This document shows positions 4,413 through 18,778 of a stretch of DNA of 26,201 nt, in pieces; the stretch's first letter is position 1, and every line of letters begins with the position of its first letter. A program made the translations under genes and the position numbers. Below the pieces are notes generated by a model. It was not told the DNA's origin. It searched no databases and saw only the letters and a program-made list of their open reading frames with translations. The stretch covers positions 1 to 26,201 of the forward strand of contig JBEQLE010000062.1 in assembly GCA_040326155.1 (NCBI GenBank), read 5' to 3'. This stretch comes from Leptospirales bacterium. GTDB lineage: Bacteria > Spirochaetota > Leptospiria > Turneriellales > JAOUFE01.

Positions 4413-5636
4413 ATGAATAAAAAATCGAACCAGATACTATTAATAGGTATAATGGTCGGCGTTGCCGCCGGGGTTATAGGTGGTATATATTTTGCCGATA
4501 CGATGAAGCAGCTCTCTTTTCTGGGTAAAATCTTCTTAAGCACGTTGAAAATAATTGCCGTACCACTTGTGGTGTTATCGATGATTTCGGGCATTAACTC
4601 CTTGGGGAACATAAGAAAAGTAGGGACGTTTGGCGGTAAAACGATCCTGTATTATATGGTGACAACCGCAATTGCCGTTACTATCGGACTAATTCTTGTA
4701 AATATTATAGAGCCGGGTGGTTCCTCGGTCGCTCCCGACCTGGAAGTGCCAGATATTGTAAAAGCCAAAGAGGCATTTACCTTTATGGATATCATTAAAG
4801 GTTTTTCCCCGGTAAATCTTTTTTACTCTCTGGTTCGGGGAGATTTATTAGCCATCATTATATTATCTCTGGTCACCGGAGCGGTGTTAAGCACAATTGA
4901 AAAAGCGAAGCCGTTTCTGAAAATTATCGATAATTTAAATGAGTACGTTTTAAAGGTAGTTCAGCTAATCTTGTGGTTTACACCGATTGGAGTTTTCGGT
5001 CTTATTGGCGCGAAAGTTGCGCAGGTTGGGGCAGAAAACCTGATGTCAGAATTGTCCAAGCTTTTTATGTATTTCTGGACTGTGGTCGGAGGGTTGTTTA
5101 TTCATGGAGTTATTGTTCTGCCTGTCATTTTTTATATTTTTACGAAAAGGAATCCTCTGGTTTACGCAAAAAACGCCTTACCAGCTCTTTTAACGGCTTT
5201 TTCTTCGGCTTCCAGCACAGGAACTTTGCCCGTTACCATTGAGTGTGCCGAAAAAAACAACAATATATCGCCTAAATCGGCTGGTTTTGTTTTACCTCTG
5301 GGCGCAACGGTCAATATGGATGGAACAGCGCTATACGAAGCAGTAGCGGCAATTTTCATTGCCCAGGTATTTAATGTCGAATTAACTTTCTCAGATCAGA
5401 TTATTATATTTTTAACTGCTACGCTTGCGGCCATAGGGGCGGCGGGAATACCAGAGGCTGGCCTTGTCACGATGGTAATTGTGTTAAATGCGGTCGGTTT
5501 ACCGCTCGAAGGGACAGCCATGTTGCTTTCCATTGACTGGTTTTTAGACAGATTTCGTACGACGGTGAATGTCTGGGGGGACTCTGTCGGAGCGGCGGTT
5601 TTAGAAAAACATGTGATTAAAGAACATGAACAATAA
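4413..5636 (+). CDS. Dicarboxylate/amino acid:cation symporter (DAACS, GltP-like)
   Basis: Multiple TM helices; AFSSASSTGTLP, LPLGATVNMDGTALYE and DWFLDRFRTTVNVWGD signature motifs. Confidence 0.95.
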   Translation: MNKKSNQILLIGIMVGVAAGVIGGIYFADTMKQLSFLGKIFLSTLKIIAVPLVVLSMISGINSLGNIRKVGTFGGKTILYYMVTTAIAVTIGLILVNIIEPGGSSVAPDLEVPDIVKAKEAFTFMDIIKGFSPVNLFYSLVRGDLLAIIILSLVTGAVLSTIEKAKPFLKIIDNLNEYVLKVVQLILWFTPIGVFGLIGAKVAQVGAENLMSELSKLFMYFWTVVGGLFIHGVIVLPVIFYIFTKRNPLVYAKNALPALLTAFSSASSTGTLPVTIECAEKNNNISPKSAGFVLPLGATVNMDGTALYEAVAAIFIAQVFNVELTFSDQIIIFLTATLAAIGAAGIPEAGLVTMVIVLNAVGLPLEGTAMLLSIDWFLDRFRTTVNVWGDSVGAAVLEKHVIKEHEQ

Positions 5637-13232: not shown

Positions 13233-14496
13233 AGATATTAGAATATCTGGGCTGGGAGGGATCGAACCTCCGAATGCCAGTACCAAAAACTGGTGCCTTA
13301 CCACTTGGCGACAGCCCAAAGTTTGATTTAAACGTTGTCCAAAATACTCCCGGATGTTTTTTTTGCAGCATCTTGTTTACCTTTTCAATCGTTTCCGTTG
13401 TTTTACTCATTAAACGATTTCCCGCATCTTGCCCGAGGCTCAGAACGGAAAAAAAGGCAGACCCTGAACCGCTCATGGATGAAAAAACTGGTTTATCGAG
13501 GTCTATAGCTTGTAACTGCCTCGCCAGGTTTTCTTCCAGATCACGATTGAGCTGCTCCATCTCGGAATATTTTTCGAGATATACATCCCGCGCCACCCGT
13601 GTAAAATCGTTCTTTATGGTAATCTTCCCTTCTTCAAGGGGAGAAAGAACACTCCTGAAATCTTTTTCGGTCCCGACAATGTTTCGGAACTTTTGAAAGC
13701 TCAGGTCTACCTGGGAGACTAACCGATCGAATCCAAATTTTAAATCCGATAGGATAAGAATACTTGATTCGTCACCTTGTAAACTCTTTTTTGATTTGCC
13801 AAACGGATCGCTCGATGGAACGACAGGTAAGTCGAGGTTTTGAAACATTGTCTTTGTCGAAAACCCGAAAGGGGGTACCCCGATAATTCCGGCAAGGGGG
13901 GCCATGTCTTTATAGGTAGTTTCCACTTGGCCAATTCCGCTGACCAGAGCAGGGCCGTTTGAAAGAAAAAACGGGATGTCTGCTCCGAGTTTAACTGATG
14001 CGTTTCGAACTATTTGTAATAATTTAGTGTGAGTTTCCTCTTTAATAAGGGTTTTGAGGTAATCGAGTAAACCGATTAACATACCAGCGGCGTTCGAACT
14101 GCCGCCACCGAGTCCCGAAGGCGAGGGTATTCGCTTCATTAGCTTTATTTGAGGCGGTGGAATCAGATCGATTTTTTGTTTTACGTCGTTGAACTCTGGT
14201 TCCTTAGGTAAAAAAGAGGCTTCGCAAAACCATTTGTAAGCTTTATACACCAGATTTTGCTCCGGCGCTTTGTTAAAAGCCATATCCATCTGTTCAGAAC
14301 CGGAAAAAGCAGGCGGCAAATGATCTTCCCAGGAAAAGGAGAACCGGGTGTTGTTTCGATCGAAAATAACATGCAGGGTGTCGTAAAGGTCGGTGGGCAG
14401 CAAAAGGCTGACAATGTGGTGGTAGCCGTTTTGATACTGAAAGGGAATTTTCAGGCCGAAATTTATTTTTGCGGGCGTCGCATAGGTTCGTTCCAT
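13219..14496 (-). CDS. ispE: 4-diphosphocytidyl-2-C-methyl-D-erythritol kinase (enlarged; frame reads through tRNA-Gln)
   Basis: PAKINFGL, GYHHIVS, KRIPSPSGLGGGSSNAA, LGADIPF, NDF and MSGSGSAFF motifs; likely start ATG 14496. Confidence 0.9.
   Translation of the reverse strand: MERTYATPAKINFGLKIPFQYQNGYHHIVSLLLPTDLYDTLHVIFDRNNTRFSFSWEDHLPPAFSGSEQMDMAFNKAPEQNLVYKAYKWFCEASFLPKEPEFNDVKQKIDLIPPPQIKLMKRIPSPSGLGGGSSNAAGMLIGLLDYLKTLIKEETHTKLLQIVRNASVKLGADIPFFLSNGPALVSGIGQVETTYKDMAPLAGIIGVPPFGFSTKTMFQNLDLPVVPSSDPFGKSKKSLQGDESSILILSDLKFGFDRLVSQVDLSFQKFRNIVGTEKDFRSVLSPLEEGKITIKNDFTRVARDVYLEKYSEMEQLNRDLEENLARQLQAIDLDKPVFSSMSGSGSAFFSVLSLGQDAGNRLMSKTTETIEKVNKMLQKKHPGVFWTTFKSNFGLSPSGKAPVFGTGIRRFDPSQPRYSNIYDLS
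13247..13318 (-). tRNA. tRNA-Gln(TTG)
   Basis: TGGGCTGTCGCCAAGTGGTAAGGCACCAGTTTTTGGTACTGGCATTCGGAGGTTCGATCCCTCCCAGCCCAG: 7-bp acceptor stem, anticodon stem CCAGT/ACTGG with loop TTTTGGT, GTTCGA T-loop; no encoded CCA. Confidence 0.97.
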
Positions 14497-15154: not shown

Positions 15155-16684
15155 ATGTTGAAATTTAGATTTATAACCACTGTTGTTTTATTAATACTTT
15201 TTTCTTTTTCTTCCAGCAAAGTAATGGCAGAAGGCGTAGAAAATGCCAGAATTATGGGGGTGGCCGACTTTTTAGTTGAGCGTGCAAATGCAAACTATAT
15301 GTATATTGTGGAAAGCAAACTGAAAAAATCGATAATATTACAAGAGTTTTTTCCAAATATTTATCGACAGTTAACATTTTCCGGTTTGACTCATCTGTTT
15401 TTAATTCCGGAAAAAGTATGGAAAGATACGATCGAAAAGGATATTGAGTTTTTAGGCGATAAGATTTCAAAAAGTATTGATACAAAGATAATCAATCCTG
15501 CTATTGAAGAAATTACAAATTTTATACAAAGGGATATTTATTCGAAGCTCGAAATATCGATTGACGGTAAAAAGTGGTGGTCTTTAGGCCTGGATGACCC
15601 GCCTGATGAATTTATGAATCAACCGGCCTACGCAGCAGTGCACAATATATTGTATGCTCCCTTAGCTCAGCTGGTGGATTTTAATATAAGAAAACAAATA
15701 GGTTTACATAATCAAACAGTCGACTTAAAGAATTTAAAAACAATAAGAGAATTCTTGCATGAAATTTCAGGATTATTAAAACAAGATGTAAATAACATGG
15801 GTGCGGTTTTGAAAAATATCAATATCAGTGTAGGTAAGCAAGCTCTGAAAAGTGAATTAATGGACATACAATTTCGTGTTATAAAAGATGAAAGTTCACT
15901 CGAGTCTAAACAGATGAGTAAACTTTTAAAAGAAGGTACAAATGTACTGAATAAGTTTTTTGGGCTTGTAGATATTTATGATTTAATAAATGAAATAAAA
16001 AGCGCAGATACCTATACCGAAAGAATGCAATATGCTCTGTTAGTACTGGAAAAAGCTATTAAGTTTGATCTTCAAGTATTTAAACCCAAAGACAGTAAAC
16101 AAAAAAATCGCGATCTGGCAAATAAAATTATGGTAGAGTTGGACAATTATAAAAAATATCTACTTCTATTTGCCCAAATGGCAGACGCAACAACAAGAGA
16201 AGAAGTAAAACAGGCTCTAAAGGCGATTACCATGCCCGATGTTAGTTTTGCCTCAGCGCGCGCTCCCGGTTTTCATATTTTCATTTCAGGATATCTCGGC
16301 GTTGCCTATGGTTATGGTCCCTTAAATATAACCGATGCATCGAAACGTACAAATTCCGGGTTTTTATTCGCCCCCGTCGGTATAGAATTGGTATGGGGTC
16401 TTGCCGGAAAATGTGGCCGTGGCTCATCGCTGGGAATATTACTTAGCCCTTTTGACTTTGGTAACCCGGTTAACACCGTGATATTTGATGACAATAAAAC
16501 ATTTACCTACACTGATATTATTTCCCCAGGTGTTTACCTGCAATGGGGTTTAAAAGATATTCCTCTTGCCATACAACTGGGTTTAAACAGACGGCCGGTA
16601 ACCGGCACCGATGTAAAAAACCACTATGAGAATCGCCTGATCATTGCGGTCACGATGGATATGCCGTTGTTTCAGCTTTATTGA
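15155..16684 (+). CDS. Hypothetical secreted/outer-membrane protein
   Basis: 509 aa with a signal peptide, a helical-looking N-terminal two thirds and a beta-strand-like C terminus ending in aromatic residues (MDMPLFQLY). Confidence 0.75.
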   Translation: MLKFRFITTVVLLILFSFSSSKVMAEGVENARIMGVADFLVERANANYMYIVESKLKKSIILQEFFPNIYRQLTFSGLTHLFLIPEKVWKDTIEKDIEFLGDKISKSIDTKIINPAIEEITNFIQRDIYSKLEISIDGKKWWSLGLDDPPDEFMNQPAYAAVHNILYAPLAQLVDFNIRKQIGLHNQTVDLKNLKTIREFLHEISGLLKQDVNNMGAVLKNINISVGKQALKSELMDIQFRVIKDESSLESKQMSKLLKEGTNVLNKFFGLVDIYDLINEIKSADTYTERMQYALLVLEKAIKFDLQVFKPKDSKQKNRDLANKIMVELDNYKKYLLLFAQMADATTREEVKQALKAITMPDVSFASARAPGFHIFISGYLGVAYGYGPLNITDASKRTNSGFLFAPVGIELVWGLAGKCGRGSSLGILLSPFDFGNPVNTVIFDDNKTFTYTDIISPGVYLQWGLKDIPLAIQLGLNRRPVTGTDVKNHYENRLIIAVTMDMPLFQLY

Positions 16685-16692
16685 GAAAAATT

Positions 16693-17004
16693 TATAAGGA
16701 AAGCAGGAAGTCAGGAAGGGAAAGAATAATACTATGGAACGGCCATCAAAAACCACGTTTTTTAATGGCTAAATACTTCAAATTATTGTCGAACGAAGCG
16801 GCATAAAAAAACCAATGGATTTTTTTATGGACTAAGGAGACAGGATTTACATGATTGGGAGATGTGGCCGGATTGGACTATGATGACTCGAGTGTCTTCT
16901 AAACGAAATTACAAAGTCTGGATCTTTAATCATGCATAATCCTGTTAATCCTGTCAAATATTCTTTTATGTTTCTTACGTCTCTTTTCCTGTAATTCTTG
17001 CTTT
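16693..17004. repeat. Modular repeat element, locus 2 (A-C-B-core-B'-A')
   Basis: A 16693-16717; double hairpin C 16742-16829; B 16839-16856; B' AATCATGCATAATCCTGTTAATCCTGTC 16928-16955; A' about 16986-17004. Confidence 0.88.
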
Positions 17005-17046
17005 GCTTTGTTTTAATTTTGAATAAAAATACTTCTAACTTTGTAT

Positions 17047-17379
17047 ATGGCCGGGTTTTTTAATAAAAAAAAGTTAATTGAAGTAAAGGACATTAACGGA
17101 GCCGTAAAGGCAGTTCCTATATTGCCAGAAAAATCGGCAATGGAGGCGATTGTCAAGGCGAAGTTAAAAATGGAAGCTTCATGTGGCGGCGAGTGCTCTT
17201 GTTCCACCTGTCATGTGTTGGTTGACCCGGCAGACCTGTCACGTCTACCCGAGCCTACCGTTGAAGAACAAGAGATGATAGATTATGCATATAACCCCCA
17301 ACACAATAGTAGACTGGCTTGCCAGATAAAACTAGATGAAAACCTGGAAGGTTTAAAACTCGAAATTGCTCATGGTTAA
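17047..17379 (+). CDS. fdx: 2Fe-2S ferredoxin (adrenodoxin/Fdx type)
   Basis: CGGECSCSTCHV and SRLACQI cysteine motifs. Confidence 0.93.
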   Translation: MAGFFNKKKLIEVKDINGAVKAVPILPEKSAMEAIVKAKLKMEASCGGECSCSTCHVLVDPADLSRLPEPTVEEQEMIDYAYNPQHNSRLACQIKLDENLEGLKLEIAHG

Positions 17380-17399
17380 TATCATTTATAAGAAACAGT

Positions 17400-17726
17400 T
17401 ATAAAGAAAGCAGGAAGCCAGGAATGGAGAAGAAGTATAGACAGGATTTACAGGATTGACATGATTAAGAGAAGAGGAATAGACGGGGCTGACCCGAGAG
17501 TCTTCTAAACGTAAGTACAAATTCTGGATCTTTAATCATGCATAATCCTGTAAATCCTGTCAAATTTTCTTTTCTTAGTTTTCACAAAAAAATCCTGCGG
17601 TTTTTTTGTGTCGCTTCGTTCGATTATATTTTAAAGTAATTTGTTTTCAAAAAGCGTGGTTTTTGAAAACCAGCTTCGTGGTATTTTTTCTATTCCTGTA
17701 ATTCCTGCCTTCTTTATAGCTAACTC
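17400..17726. repeat. Modular repeat element, locus 3 (A-B-core-B'-C'-A')
   Basis: A 17400-17424; B 17440-17466; B' 17534-17561; inverted C 17583-17670; A' 17693-17718 followed by GCTAACTCT, which also occurs at 25446. Confidence 0.9.
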
Positions 17727-17786
17727 TCGCTTTGCGCCTTCGTGGCCCTTTTCTCTTTATTCTATTTATCCATGTTCAATAATACG

Positions 17787-17862
17787 TAAGGGGTGGCTAT
17801 CGCAACCCAGCGGGTAGTGTAGAACGTGAAACGTTCGGAACGAGGGGCAGGCTTGCCCCTTA
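17787..17862. other. GC-rich three-hairpin element upstream of rpsB
   Basis: Hairpins at 17791-17808, 17822-17836 (GAACGT-GAA-ACGTTC) and 17843-17860 (AGGGGCA-GGCT-TGCCCCT). Confidence 0.55.
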
Positions 17863-17947
17863 TGTCACATCTTTTCTTGTTCTGTTATTTTTAATCATTT
17901 ACAAAACGTTTTCGGTTTGAAACTTGGTATGGTTCAAGGAGATAAAT

Positions 17948-18778
17948 GTGGCTACAATATCGATGAAAAGTTTATTAGAAGCGGGAGTACACTTTGGTCA
18001 CCAGACCAGGCGTTGGAATCCCAAAATGAAGAAATATATTTTTACGGCAAGAAACGGCATTCATATCATTAACCTGCAAAAAACAATAGGTCTTGCGAAA
18101 ACCGCATACGAAGCTATGCGCGAAATTGCCTCACAGGGCGGCAAAATTCTATTTGTTGGAACTAAAAAACAGGCCCAGTCCGAAATTAAAAGAGCCGCTG
18201 AAGAGTGCGGTATGTATTATATTAACAACCGATGGTTGGGTGGTATTTTAACAAATTTTAATACAGTGAAAAAGTCTATTCAACGTCTTCGTAAGCTTGA
18301 AGACGCTTTTGAAAAGGATACTGTTTCTCAATTGGTTAAAACCAAAAAAGAGACTCTTTTGCTTCAACGAGAGTTGAACCGATTAAGAAGATACTTAAAC
18401 GGTATTAAAGATATGACGGCTTTGCCTGACGCTCTTTTTGTTATTGACCCTGTTCGTGAGCATATTGCAATTAAAGAAGCTCGCCGAAATAACATTCCTA
18501 TATTCGCTCTTGCTGATACCAACTGCGACCCTAATCTCGTTGATTATGCAATTCCTGCTAACGACGATGCTATTCGTGCGGTTGCTTTGTTCCTTCAAAT
18601 TATGGTTGGCGCCATTGAAGAAGGAAAACAAGGCGGTGAGTTCTCTCAAGTTGAAATTGAACAAGATGATGAAAACATGGACCAAGCAGAGGCCGCCCCT
18701 GAAGGCAAAGAGACCACTAAGCTTGATGCAATTGAAGAGCTTGAAACAAAGTACGACACTGTCGAAACTGAAGATTAA
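17948..18778 (+). CDS. rpsB: 30S ribosomal protein S2
   Basis: [28 protein letters not shown] and [11 protein letters not shown] motifs; GTG start after an AAGGAGA SD. Confidence 0.98.

Follow-up and report, generated by a model that had tools for sequence, protein, structure and literature searches.

A dispersed double-hairpin repeat with co-varying stems in the intergenic DNA of a Leptospirales bacterium

Analysis of a 26,201-nt stretch of DNA from a Leptospirales bacterium (contig JBEQLE010000062.1 of assembly GCA_040326155.1; the whole stretch is hereafter the window) uncovered two inverted copies of a double-hairpin repeat, for which we coined the name DH family in this analysis. The family is dispersed over the genome in about 100 copies, and its stems vary in sequence while remaining paired. 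DH is probably a previously uncatalogued, lineage-restricted, non-coding interspersed repeat of mosaic build that acts as a folded single strand and works in the manner of REP/BIME or BOX elements. Despite this similarity of working, it belongs to none of the REP/BIME, BOX or RIME-type families. A first-pass annotation of the window had described an isolated pair of modules; both modules are present, but they are two of the ~100 copies in the genome and not an isolated pair.

The assembly (genome label G000) comprises 4.26 Mb in 171 contigs with 39.6% G+C and is 94.66% complete, and the window is its contig C130. Iterated nhmmer searches of the assembly recovered 90, 105 and 106 matches over three rounds, 75 of them near full length. 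These 106 matches lie at ~76 loci on 47 of the 171 contigs and total 7,806 bases, or 0.18% of the assembly. A covariance model built from 60 copies (model R1) recovers 90 copies in the same genome. A DH copy is found within 300 nt of 7 of the 342 contig ends; the units break the assembly at these ends, and the copy numbers are therefore lower bounds. All seven (on contigs C116, C134, C27, C30, C53, C93 and C95) are right-hand ends. The copies are essentially all intergenic: 68 of the 106 matches touch no crude open reading frame (ORF) of at least 80 aa, and 35 of the 38 ORFs overlapped by the remaining matches are no longer than 150 aa and lie within repeat DNA. Copies occur solo or as head-to-tail arrays with a period of ~107 nt and gaps of mostly 15–31 nt, and adjacent pairs without an intervening ORF are oriented head to tail in 29 of 30 cases.

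When positions 16742-16829 of the window are read against the reverse complement of 17583-17670, both show the layout reported in the first-pass annotation, that is, a 28-nt hairpin, a 32-nt linker and a second 28-nt hairpin. Reading the two copies confirmed this layout, the linker motif TCGAACGAAGCG common to both, and the paired differences between their stems that had been listed earlier, which are real. The 88-nt module described at that stage stands as the core of the unit, with limits that were drawn slightly too narrow: other copies add a 5′ head and a 3′ tail (ACTAA), and alignments including the flanks give a full unit of ~107-115 nt. Copy 1 is matched by nhmmer at C130:16747-16829 (E = 2.5e-17) and by the covariance model at 16735-16841 (100.2 bits), and copy 2 is matched at 17665-17583 (E = 8.1e-21) and 17571-17677 (113.1 bits), respectively. 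A repeat search of the window pairs the arms 16746-16829 and 17583-17666 (84 nt, 80% complementary), and blastn against the genome with copy 1 as the query finds copy 2 at E = 6e-11. The match between the two copies is far above chance.

The DH unit is built, in order, of a head (consensus ATACCAC-GAAGCG), hairpin 1, a linker, hairpin 2 and the tail. Hairpin 1 has an outer stem of 6-7 hypervariable pairs and an inner A5/T5 stem that is invariant, together with a C:G pair that is replaced by T:A in 2 of 60 aligned copies, a 3-nt loop and one unpaired Y. The linker includes ACTTYAAAC, the hexamer NANNAT, which is variable, and TCGAACGNAGCGAC. Hairpin 2 is built on an A7/T7 stem with a CC-GNA-GG apex, and 73 of 75 copies have one A bulged out of the stem; within the apex, a G (70/75), any base and an A (74/75) are closed by a C:G pair. 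GNA triloops are known from very stable DNA and RNA mini-hairpins. The head, the linker and the hairpin-2 apex each contain the pentamer CGNAG, whose middle base is free, and the two half-units align collinearly with a score of 34, against 12.5 ± 5.0 for shuffled sequences, although the score is inflated by the A and T runs. Because the halves align collinearly and CGNAG recurs, the unit looks like a dimer, its halves being diverged duplicates of one ~50-nt sub-unit. Both palindromes are internal, and the ends of the unit, the ATACCAC-GAAGCG head and the ACTAA tail, are not inverted repeats of one another. A miniature inverted-repeat transposable element was considered as a classification and rejected, since the unit ends lack terminal inverted repeats.

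Sub-modules of the unit also occur alone or in variable tandem number, a modularity of the BOX type. About a dozen nhmmer matches end at model positions 53-62 and represent partial units with hairpin 1 only, others begin at model positions 39-45 and represent partial units with hairpin 2 only, and tandem half-hairpin-2 pieces are found as well. Outside full units lie 44 of the 120 hairpin-2 cores and 51 of the 123 linker motifs.

In order to evaluate base pairing, covariation was tested with our own structure on a 60-copy alignment, with 500 shuffles and with pairing partners slid by 1-3 columns as controls. In this alignment 90.7% of cells are paired (78.9 ± 0.6% when shuffled), 174 cells carry double changes (56.5 when shuffled), and the covariation score is 0.307, compared with 0.101 for shuffled and at most 0.073 for slid columns; none of the 500 shuffles reached the observed values. 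Hairpin 2 is 97.1% paired and has changes on both sides at 8 of its 12 pairs, and RNAalifold independently finds hairpin 2 together with the outer stem of hairpin 1. The covariation first noticed between the two window copies, which had been read as constraint on a folded single strand of RNA or single-stranded DNA (ssDNA), is thus borne out by pairing and covariation far above both controls. The additional copies co-vary as well, and no known family was matched.

Variation is concentrated in the outer arms of hairpin 1, which were examined in a set of 113 copies comprising the 60 copies from this genome and 53 near-full copies from a related organism described below. The arms are 78.9% paired against 46.7 ± 1.6% in shuffles, and every arm cell is paired in 64 of the 113 copies. 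Column entropy in the arms ranges from 1.05 to 1.98 bits, with central columns at ~1.9-2.0, relative to a maximum of 1.62 in the linker. The set contains 83 distinct arm pairs, of which 3 are common to both organisms, so a handful of sub-families cannot account for the covariation, and descent from a few inherited sub-families was rejected as its source on these counts.

Several features point to the sense strand as the folding strand, with a signal of moderate strength. The GNA pattern of the hairpin-2 apex exists on the sense strand only. Cells with G-T exceed cells with A-C by 46:20 in this genome and by 38:31 in the relative. Pair 73:96 is found over both sets as CG in 73 copies, TG in 21, TA in 13 and CA in 1, which is the route expected for compensation through a wobble pair.

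The family is narrowly distributed. The covariance model detected it in 0 of 40 relatives (3 from the same family, 30 from the same order and 7 from the same class), and a DNA search of the relatives returned a single 31-nt match at chance level (E = 4.8e-4). Across 185,579 species genomes a strict pattern scan gave 0 matches and a looser scan gave 1; this match, in a Xenorhabdus record, went unconfirmed by nhmmer. The family is also absent from the viral contigs, plasmids and phages searched. A metagenome scan recovered 34 DH loci from two data sets, together holding 63 copies. The coding flanks of these loci are 76-89% identical to this genome, and the loci therefore belong to a close relative that is a separate organism. 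On average, copies are as alike within the two sets (mean identity 0.746 and 0.739) as they are between them (0.741). The family therefore predates the split and its copies are not undergoing homogenisation, and species-specific homogenisation (concerted evolution) was ruled out on the same comparison.

Comparison of matching sites revealed both gain or loss of copies and change in place. Projected from flanking anchors, 21 of the relative's copies, spread over 17 loci, have no counterpart in this genome, and base-by-base inspection established six sites that are filled in the relative and empty in this genome (Table 1), while ~8 DH positions are common to both organisms. Array length differs too, with four copies at metagenome locus L093 versus one on C99 and three at L077 versus none on C160. 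Between positional pairs, arm identity in hairpin 1 averages ~0.50 versus ~0.79-0.89 elsewhere in the unit; in random cross-set pairs it is 0.34. Compared between positional orthologues, the hairpin-1 outer stem is the faster-changing part of the unit, but its pairing is kept. For example, C120:16014 and L090:1943 are 90-96% identical over linker and hairpin 2 and have two adjacent stem pairs swapped on both arms, and C110:7933 and L103:2475 differ at three stem pairs, all of which stay or become paired. At C110:5984-6066 (L007), the hairpin-1 arms are mismatched, the 5′ arm being of the type found in window copy 2 and the 3′ arm of another type, and the relative's positional match (L103:379-455) is perfectly paired; the mismatch points to exchange between copies at a breakpoint located in the loop. 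At L096:~520-1700, ~1.2 kb of extra DNA lies beside a DH copy, and the matching site in this genome (C116:~44100) is empty.

The copies show no consistent orientation to, or fixed distance from, neighbouring genes. Among the 98 copies with both neighbours called, contexts are -+ in 36, -- in 29, +- in 17 and ++ in 16 cases, such that 29 copies are antisense to both neighbours and 33 lie downstream of a co-oriented gene. Genes bracketed by inverted DH copies are housekeeping genes (FAD oxidoreductase, UbiD and ferredoxin). Orientation relative to local GC skew is 48:29 (p = 0.04, with loci that are not independent), a bias too weak to use. A terminator scan of 16600-17950 found 0 terminator-like sites; a role as intrinsic terminator was rejected on this result and on the small share of copies (33/98) that follow a co-oriented gene.

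A sigma-70-like site was found in copy 2 (Table 1), with TTGAAA in the 3′ arm of hairpin 1, a 16-nt spacer and TATAAT in the linker, reading towards hairpin 2. On the sense strand, 41 of 113 copies have a promoter-like site at the same position, against 13.9 of 113 in mononucleotide shuffles, and on the antisense strand 0 of 113 do; at the −10-critical positions of NANNAT, 89% of 75 copies have the A and 100% the T. The site is a consensus match only, in AT-rich DNA, and represents a putative promoter. The authors of a transcription start site map of L. interrogans consider such promoter predictions unreliable in AT-rich genomes (PMC5243855). A look-up of sequencing runs, RNA or DNA, for 16400-18100 of the window returned none.

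Searches for known families and for a mobilising enzyme were largely negative. Rfam at gathering threshold yielded tRNA-Gln (13247-13318) as the sole match in the window, and a relaxed search (E ≤ 10) of 16600-17800 yielded nothing credible over the units, the best overlapping matches scoring 23.1 bits for bantam and 30.8 bits for NsiR8, each against a threshold of 61, the latter mostly over an adjoining repeat, family B (Table 1). The first-pass proposal of a single unannotated non-coding RNA (ncRNA) gene gives way to a dispersed, tandem-prone family with 106 nhmmer matches, no gene co-orientation and no Rfam match. A literature search on such repeats in Leptospira-like bacteria, covering article texts, returned only general repeat papers and unrelated L. 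interrogans intergenic repeats (PMC5243855). The alternative first-pass proposal, a HUH/Y1 recognition structure, found no support: the assembly has 0 matches to Y1_Tnp (PF01797), for which the same search was positive in 6 of 14 control genomes, and 0 to the TnpB domain (PF07282), for which 8 of 14 were positive, whereas 0 matches to Y2_Tnp (PF04986) are uninformative, the control having given 0 as well. The assembly is incomplete and fragmented, so the absence of a Y1-type gene is not proven. IS200/IS605 ends were rejected as a classification of DH on the PF01797 and PF07282 results. The genome encodes three IS110-family (DEDD) transposase genes (Table 1) and two DDE_Tnp_1 fragments. A search for a parent IS element, limited to the regions around the IS110 genes, found no DH sub-motif except one hairpin-2 core 2.7 kb away. 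A repeat near the IS110 gene on C104 recurs at the start of metagenome locus L090.

Among systems with shape-recognised hairpins, the subterminal hairpins of IS200/IS605 elements and the attC sites of integrons are structure-specific substrates of single-strand recombination. Their paired parts vary, bases that are unpaired or bulged are conserved and only one strand is active, and DH resembles them in its bulged A and invariant loops. Unlike both, DH carries its variable part at the base of the stem and not near the loop; in addition, the DH genome yielded no Y1 transposase, and no cassette genes lie between DH units, the array spacers being 15-31 nt. Two further intergenic repeats are comparable in build. 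RIME1 of Sinorhizobium/Rhizobium is an intergenic repeat of ~108 bp with two large palindromes, and shares the two-palindrome intergenic build with DH. The MIRUs of Mycobacterium tuberculosis are dispersed intergenic loci with a variable number of 40-100 bp head-to-tail units, and share this arrangement with DH. Both belong to bacteria of other phyla and are not known to resemble DH in sequence, and MIRUs are not hairpin-based. A literature search on RIME1 returned passing mentions only.

The resemblance to REP/BIME elements is broader. Like these, DH consists of short imperfect palindromes in ~100 or more copies per genome, is extragenic, clusters into composite mosaics, is species- or genus-specific, shows compensating stem changes, and probably acts as a folded single strand. 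However, DH stems are A/T tracts where REP stems are GC-rich, and in the DH unit two unlike hairpins, with a conserved 32-nt linker between them, form an apparently fixed dimer. The DH genome yielded no match for the Y1/RAYT gene, which REPs typically flank, and DH clusters run head to tail (29/30), whereas REPs in BIME clusters alternate in orientation (PMC2817692). Assignment to REP/BIME was rejected on the head-to-tail clusters and the 0 PF01797 matches. The pneumococcal BOX elements (boxA-boxB(n)-boxC) are transcribed and able to affect neighbouring genes (PMC3049150). BOX and DH are alike in several respects: sub-modules may be absent or tandem, with numbers that vary between strains for BOX and between organisms for DH; secondary structure is extensively predicted, with an uncertain mobilising enzyme in both; and both cluster and nest with other repeats, which are RUP and SPRITE for BOX and repeats A and B for DH (PMC3049150). 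BoxA and boxC have terminal inverted similarity, in contrast to the unrelated ends of DH. The comparison rests on architecture and not on sequence homology.

In the explanation that we favour, the unit would multiply as DNA. Slippage or unequal exchange would account for local spread, acting on head-to-tail units as well as on the repeated CGNAG heads, and spread between loci would occur by recombination or by some trans-acting enzyme. The hairpins would persist since the sense strand is used in a folded single-stranded form, most likely ssDNA that is exposed during replication or repair and recognised by a protein at the invariant loops. The hairpins would form in any transcript of the unit too, and neighbouring genes could feel side effects.

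A number of observations weigh against this explanation. No enzyme for the dispersal of DH was found, the Y1_Tnp, TnpB and Y2_Tnp searches being empty and the IS110 genes not adjoining copies, and the six empty-versus-filled alignments show no clear target-site duplication, with extra repeat DNA, which is often present at the filled sites, blurring the junctions. Mean identity among copies is only 74-75%, the same within and between genomes. In a family this old, the pairing kept by resident copies argues that selection, or else templated correction, still acts on each locus and is not confined to the copying event, and such retention fits a host-level RNA or protein-binding role equally well. 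The strand signal is modest and position-dependent: the terminal pair 70:98 is biased in the opposite direction (CA 11 versus TG 5), the overall G-T:A-C ratio in the relative is only 38:31, and folding in silico is no less stable for the antisense strands of the two window copies (-24.2/-22.0 versus -17.7/-19.0 kcal/mol). Finally, the GC-skew bias is weak and its direction is opposite to that of known IS200/IS605-type elements.

The retention of pairing in old resident copies also keeps alive the main rival, in which the units are host-level structured RNA modules transcribed from their own promoter-like site or within the untranslated regions of neighbouring genes. We regard this as possible but doubtful, and hold to the same reserve the roles that it would imply, as 5′ or 3′ stabilisers, as sites for RNases or RNA-binding proteins, or as very small hairpin-2 RNAs. 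Conserved loops with co-varying stems are typical of functional RNA, old and diverged copies are still paired, with paired changes between positional orthologues, and G-T cells exceed A-C cells on one strand, but the orientation of the units is not tied to genes (29/98 antisense to both neighbours, 33/98 downstream of a co-oriented gene) and their distance to start codons is not fixed. The TTGNNN-16/17-NANNAT site does stand at a fixed position on the sense strand in 41 of 113 copies, with 11 of 12 consensus matches in copy 2; it is lacking in the other 72, and where present it would transcribe hairpin 2 only. The similarly built pneumococcal BOX is transcribed and affects neighbouring genes (PMC3049150). 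DH has no terminator-like site in 16600-17950 and no Rfam match, and beside the same housekeeping genes many loci are filled in one organism and empty in the other, which would be unusual for a needed regulatory RNA.

Other readings are less probable. It is quite unlikely that the hairpins are recognition structures of a HUH/Y1 transposase of the RAYT or IS200/IS605 type that moves the unit as ssDNA. Such an enzyme would account for a hairpin 1 that conserves structure rather than sequence, for invariant loops and an invariant bulged base, for the apparent preference for one strand and for loci present in one relative and absent from the other, and its single-copy gene could be missed in an assembly that is 94.66% complete and in 171 contigs. 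The empty Y1_Tnp and TnpB searches argue against it, the former positive in 6 of 14 controls, as do the head-to-tail clusters (29/30) where BIME REPs alternate (PMC2817692), the inverted copies that flank the housekeeping genes named above, and a GC-skew bias that is weak and in the wrong direction for lagging-strand-template transposition. Very improbable is a reading of the palindromes as operators bound by dimeric proteins on double-stranded DNA (dsDNA), or as bidirectional intrinsic terminators, that were spread by duplication. The palindromic cores, the bending of DNA by A/T tracts and the order of A-tract, short GC part and T-tract, superficially like that of bidirectional terminators, are compatible with it; however, a protein reading the duplex needs no complementary hypervariable arms, yet the arms stay complementary, the scan found 0 terminator sites, the GC part of the stem is only 1-2 bp, the T run lies inside the stem and not after it, and neither orientation nor position tracks gene ends. 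Also unlikely, in our estimate, is that DH is the substrate of an undescribed system, in which a protein without a RAYT/IS200-type enzyme would read C-GNA-G-tipped A/T-tract hairpins on one strand, as ssDNA or RNA, and in which both arms of the hairpin-1 outer stem could change together without hindrance, or might even be driven to do so. The fast paired change of this outer stem could reflect an 'address' function of each locus or self-correction in replication templated by the hairpin.

Small structured intergenic repeats are common but poorly understood beyond a few model bacteria, and their origin, spread and effect on the host are debated. DH is an unusually clean case, with ~100 copies, invariant loops and a near-random but paired stem, and with matching sites in a second organism of which some show paired changes and others gain or loss. 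It therefore offers a natural data set on what keeps hairpins paired, selection or templated repair. It also serves as a warning for ncRNA discovery, as strong covariation alone does not indicate an RNA gene. Model R1 can be used to annotate related genomes, and DH units end contigs in this assembly.

Table 1 Coordinates of DH units, neighbouring features and related sites (window positions, unless a contig is named)
Feature	Position	Strand	Basis or remarks
DH repeat unit, copy 1	16727..16836	+	sequence; repeat coverage up ~16747, down ~16836
Copy 1, parts	degenerate head ~16727-16741; hairpin 1 16742-16769; linker 16770-16801; hairpin 2 16802-16829; tail 16830-16836		
DH repeat unit, copy 2, inverted	17574..17686	-	sequence; repeat coverage 17583 to ~17686
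Copy 2, parts	tail 17574-17582; hairpin 2 17583-17610; linker 17611-17642; hairpin 1 17643-17670; head 17671-17686		
Sigma-70-like site in copy 2 (putative)	17623..17650	-	consensus scan, 11/12 matches
Sites empty in this genome, filled in the relative	C83 near 67200; C160:51564-51726; C15:7318-7451; C116 near 6190; C94 near 5125-5170; C116 near 44100		
IS110-family (DEDD) transposase genes	C161:704-1162; C100:34646-35080; C104:23977-24417		
Ferredoxin gene, 2Fe-2S, between two repeat-filled spacers	17041..17379	+	Pfam Fer2 PF00111, E = 4.4e-8; context only
rpsB (ribosomal protein S2), first gene downstream of copy 2	17924..18778	+	Pfam Ribosomal_S2, E = 9.1e-96; context only
Repeat family B, palindromic ~139 nt, abuts copy 1	16838..16975	+	direct repeat D1, inverted repeats I5/I6
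Repeat family B, second copy, abuts copy 2	17439..17575	+	I2 arms 17427-17457 / 17544-17574, 31 nt, 84% complementary
Repeat A (CAGGAAG-type words), left outer arm	16684..16721	+	inverted partner 16982-17004; D5 and D2
Repeat A, second copy	17391..17428	+	inverted partner 17689-17721; I4 17397-17416 / 17702-17721, 90% complementary

The surroundings of the two window copies contain further repeats. Directly upstream of copy 1 lies a 509-aa ORF (15155-16684, + strand) with no Pfam match at E ≤ 0.001, and rpsB-tsf-pyrH are downstream of copy 2. On either side of the ferredoxin gene, repeat A forms an outer inverted pair enclosing the DH and B units, such that each spacer is a nested palindrome of ~320-330 nt; inside the A pair, one spacer reads DH-B and the other B-DH (inverted). 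Repeat A at 16684..16721 has coverage from ~8 other loci. The 31-nt arms of family B consist of three tandem 9-nt words (ACAGGATTW). The family has 115 nhmmer matches in the genome, apparently at ~57 loci that are each matched on both strands, and its Rfam matches to long-hairpin families are all sub-threshold. A search of the assembly for the 23S-IVS-type gene (PF05635) gave 0 matches. Upstream of rpsB, a GC-rich hairpin (GGGGCA-N4-TGCCCC) is found at 17844-17859. DH copies on contigs C132, C155 and C89 have near-identical GC-rich hairpins immediately downstream, and the hairpin upstream of rpsB is probably a member of a further small repeat family.

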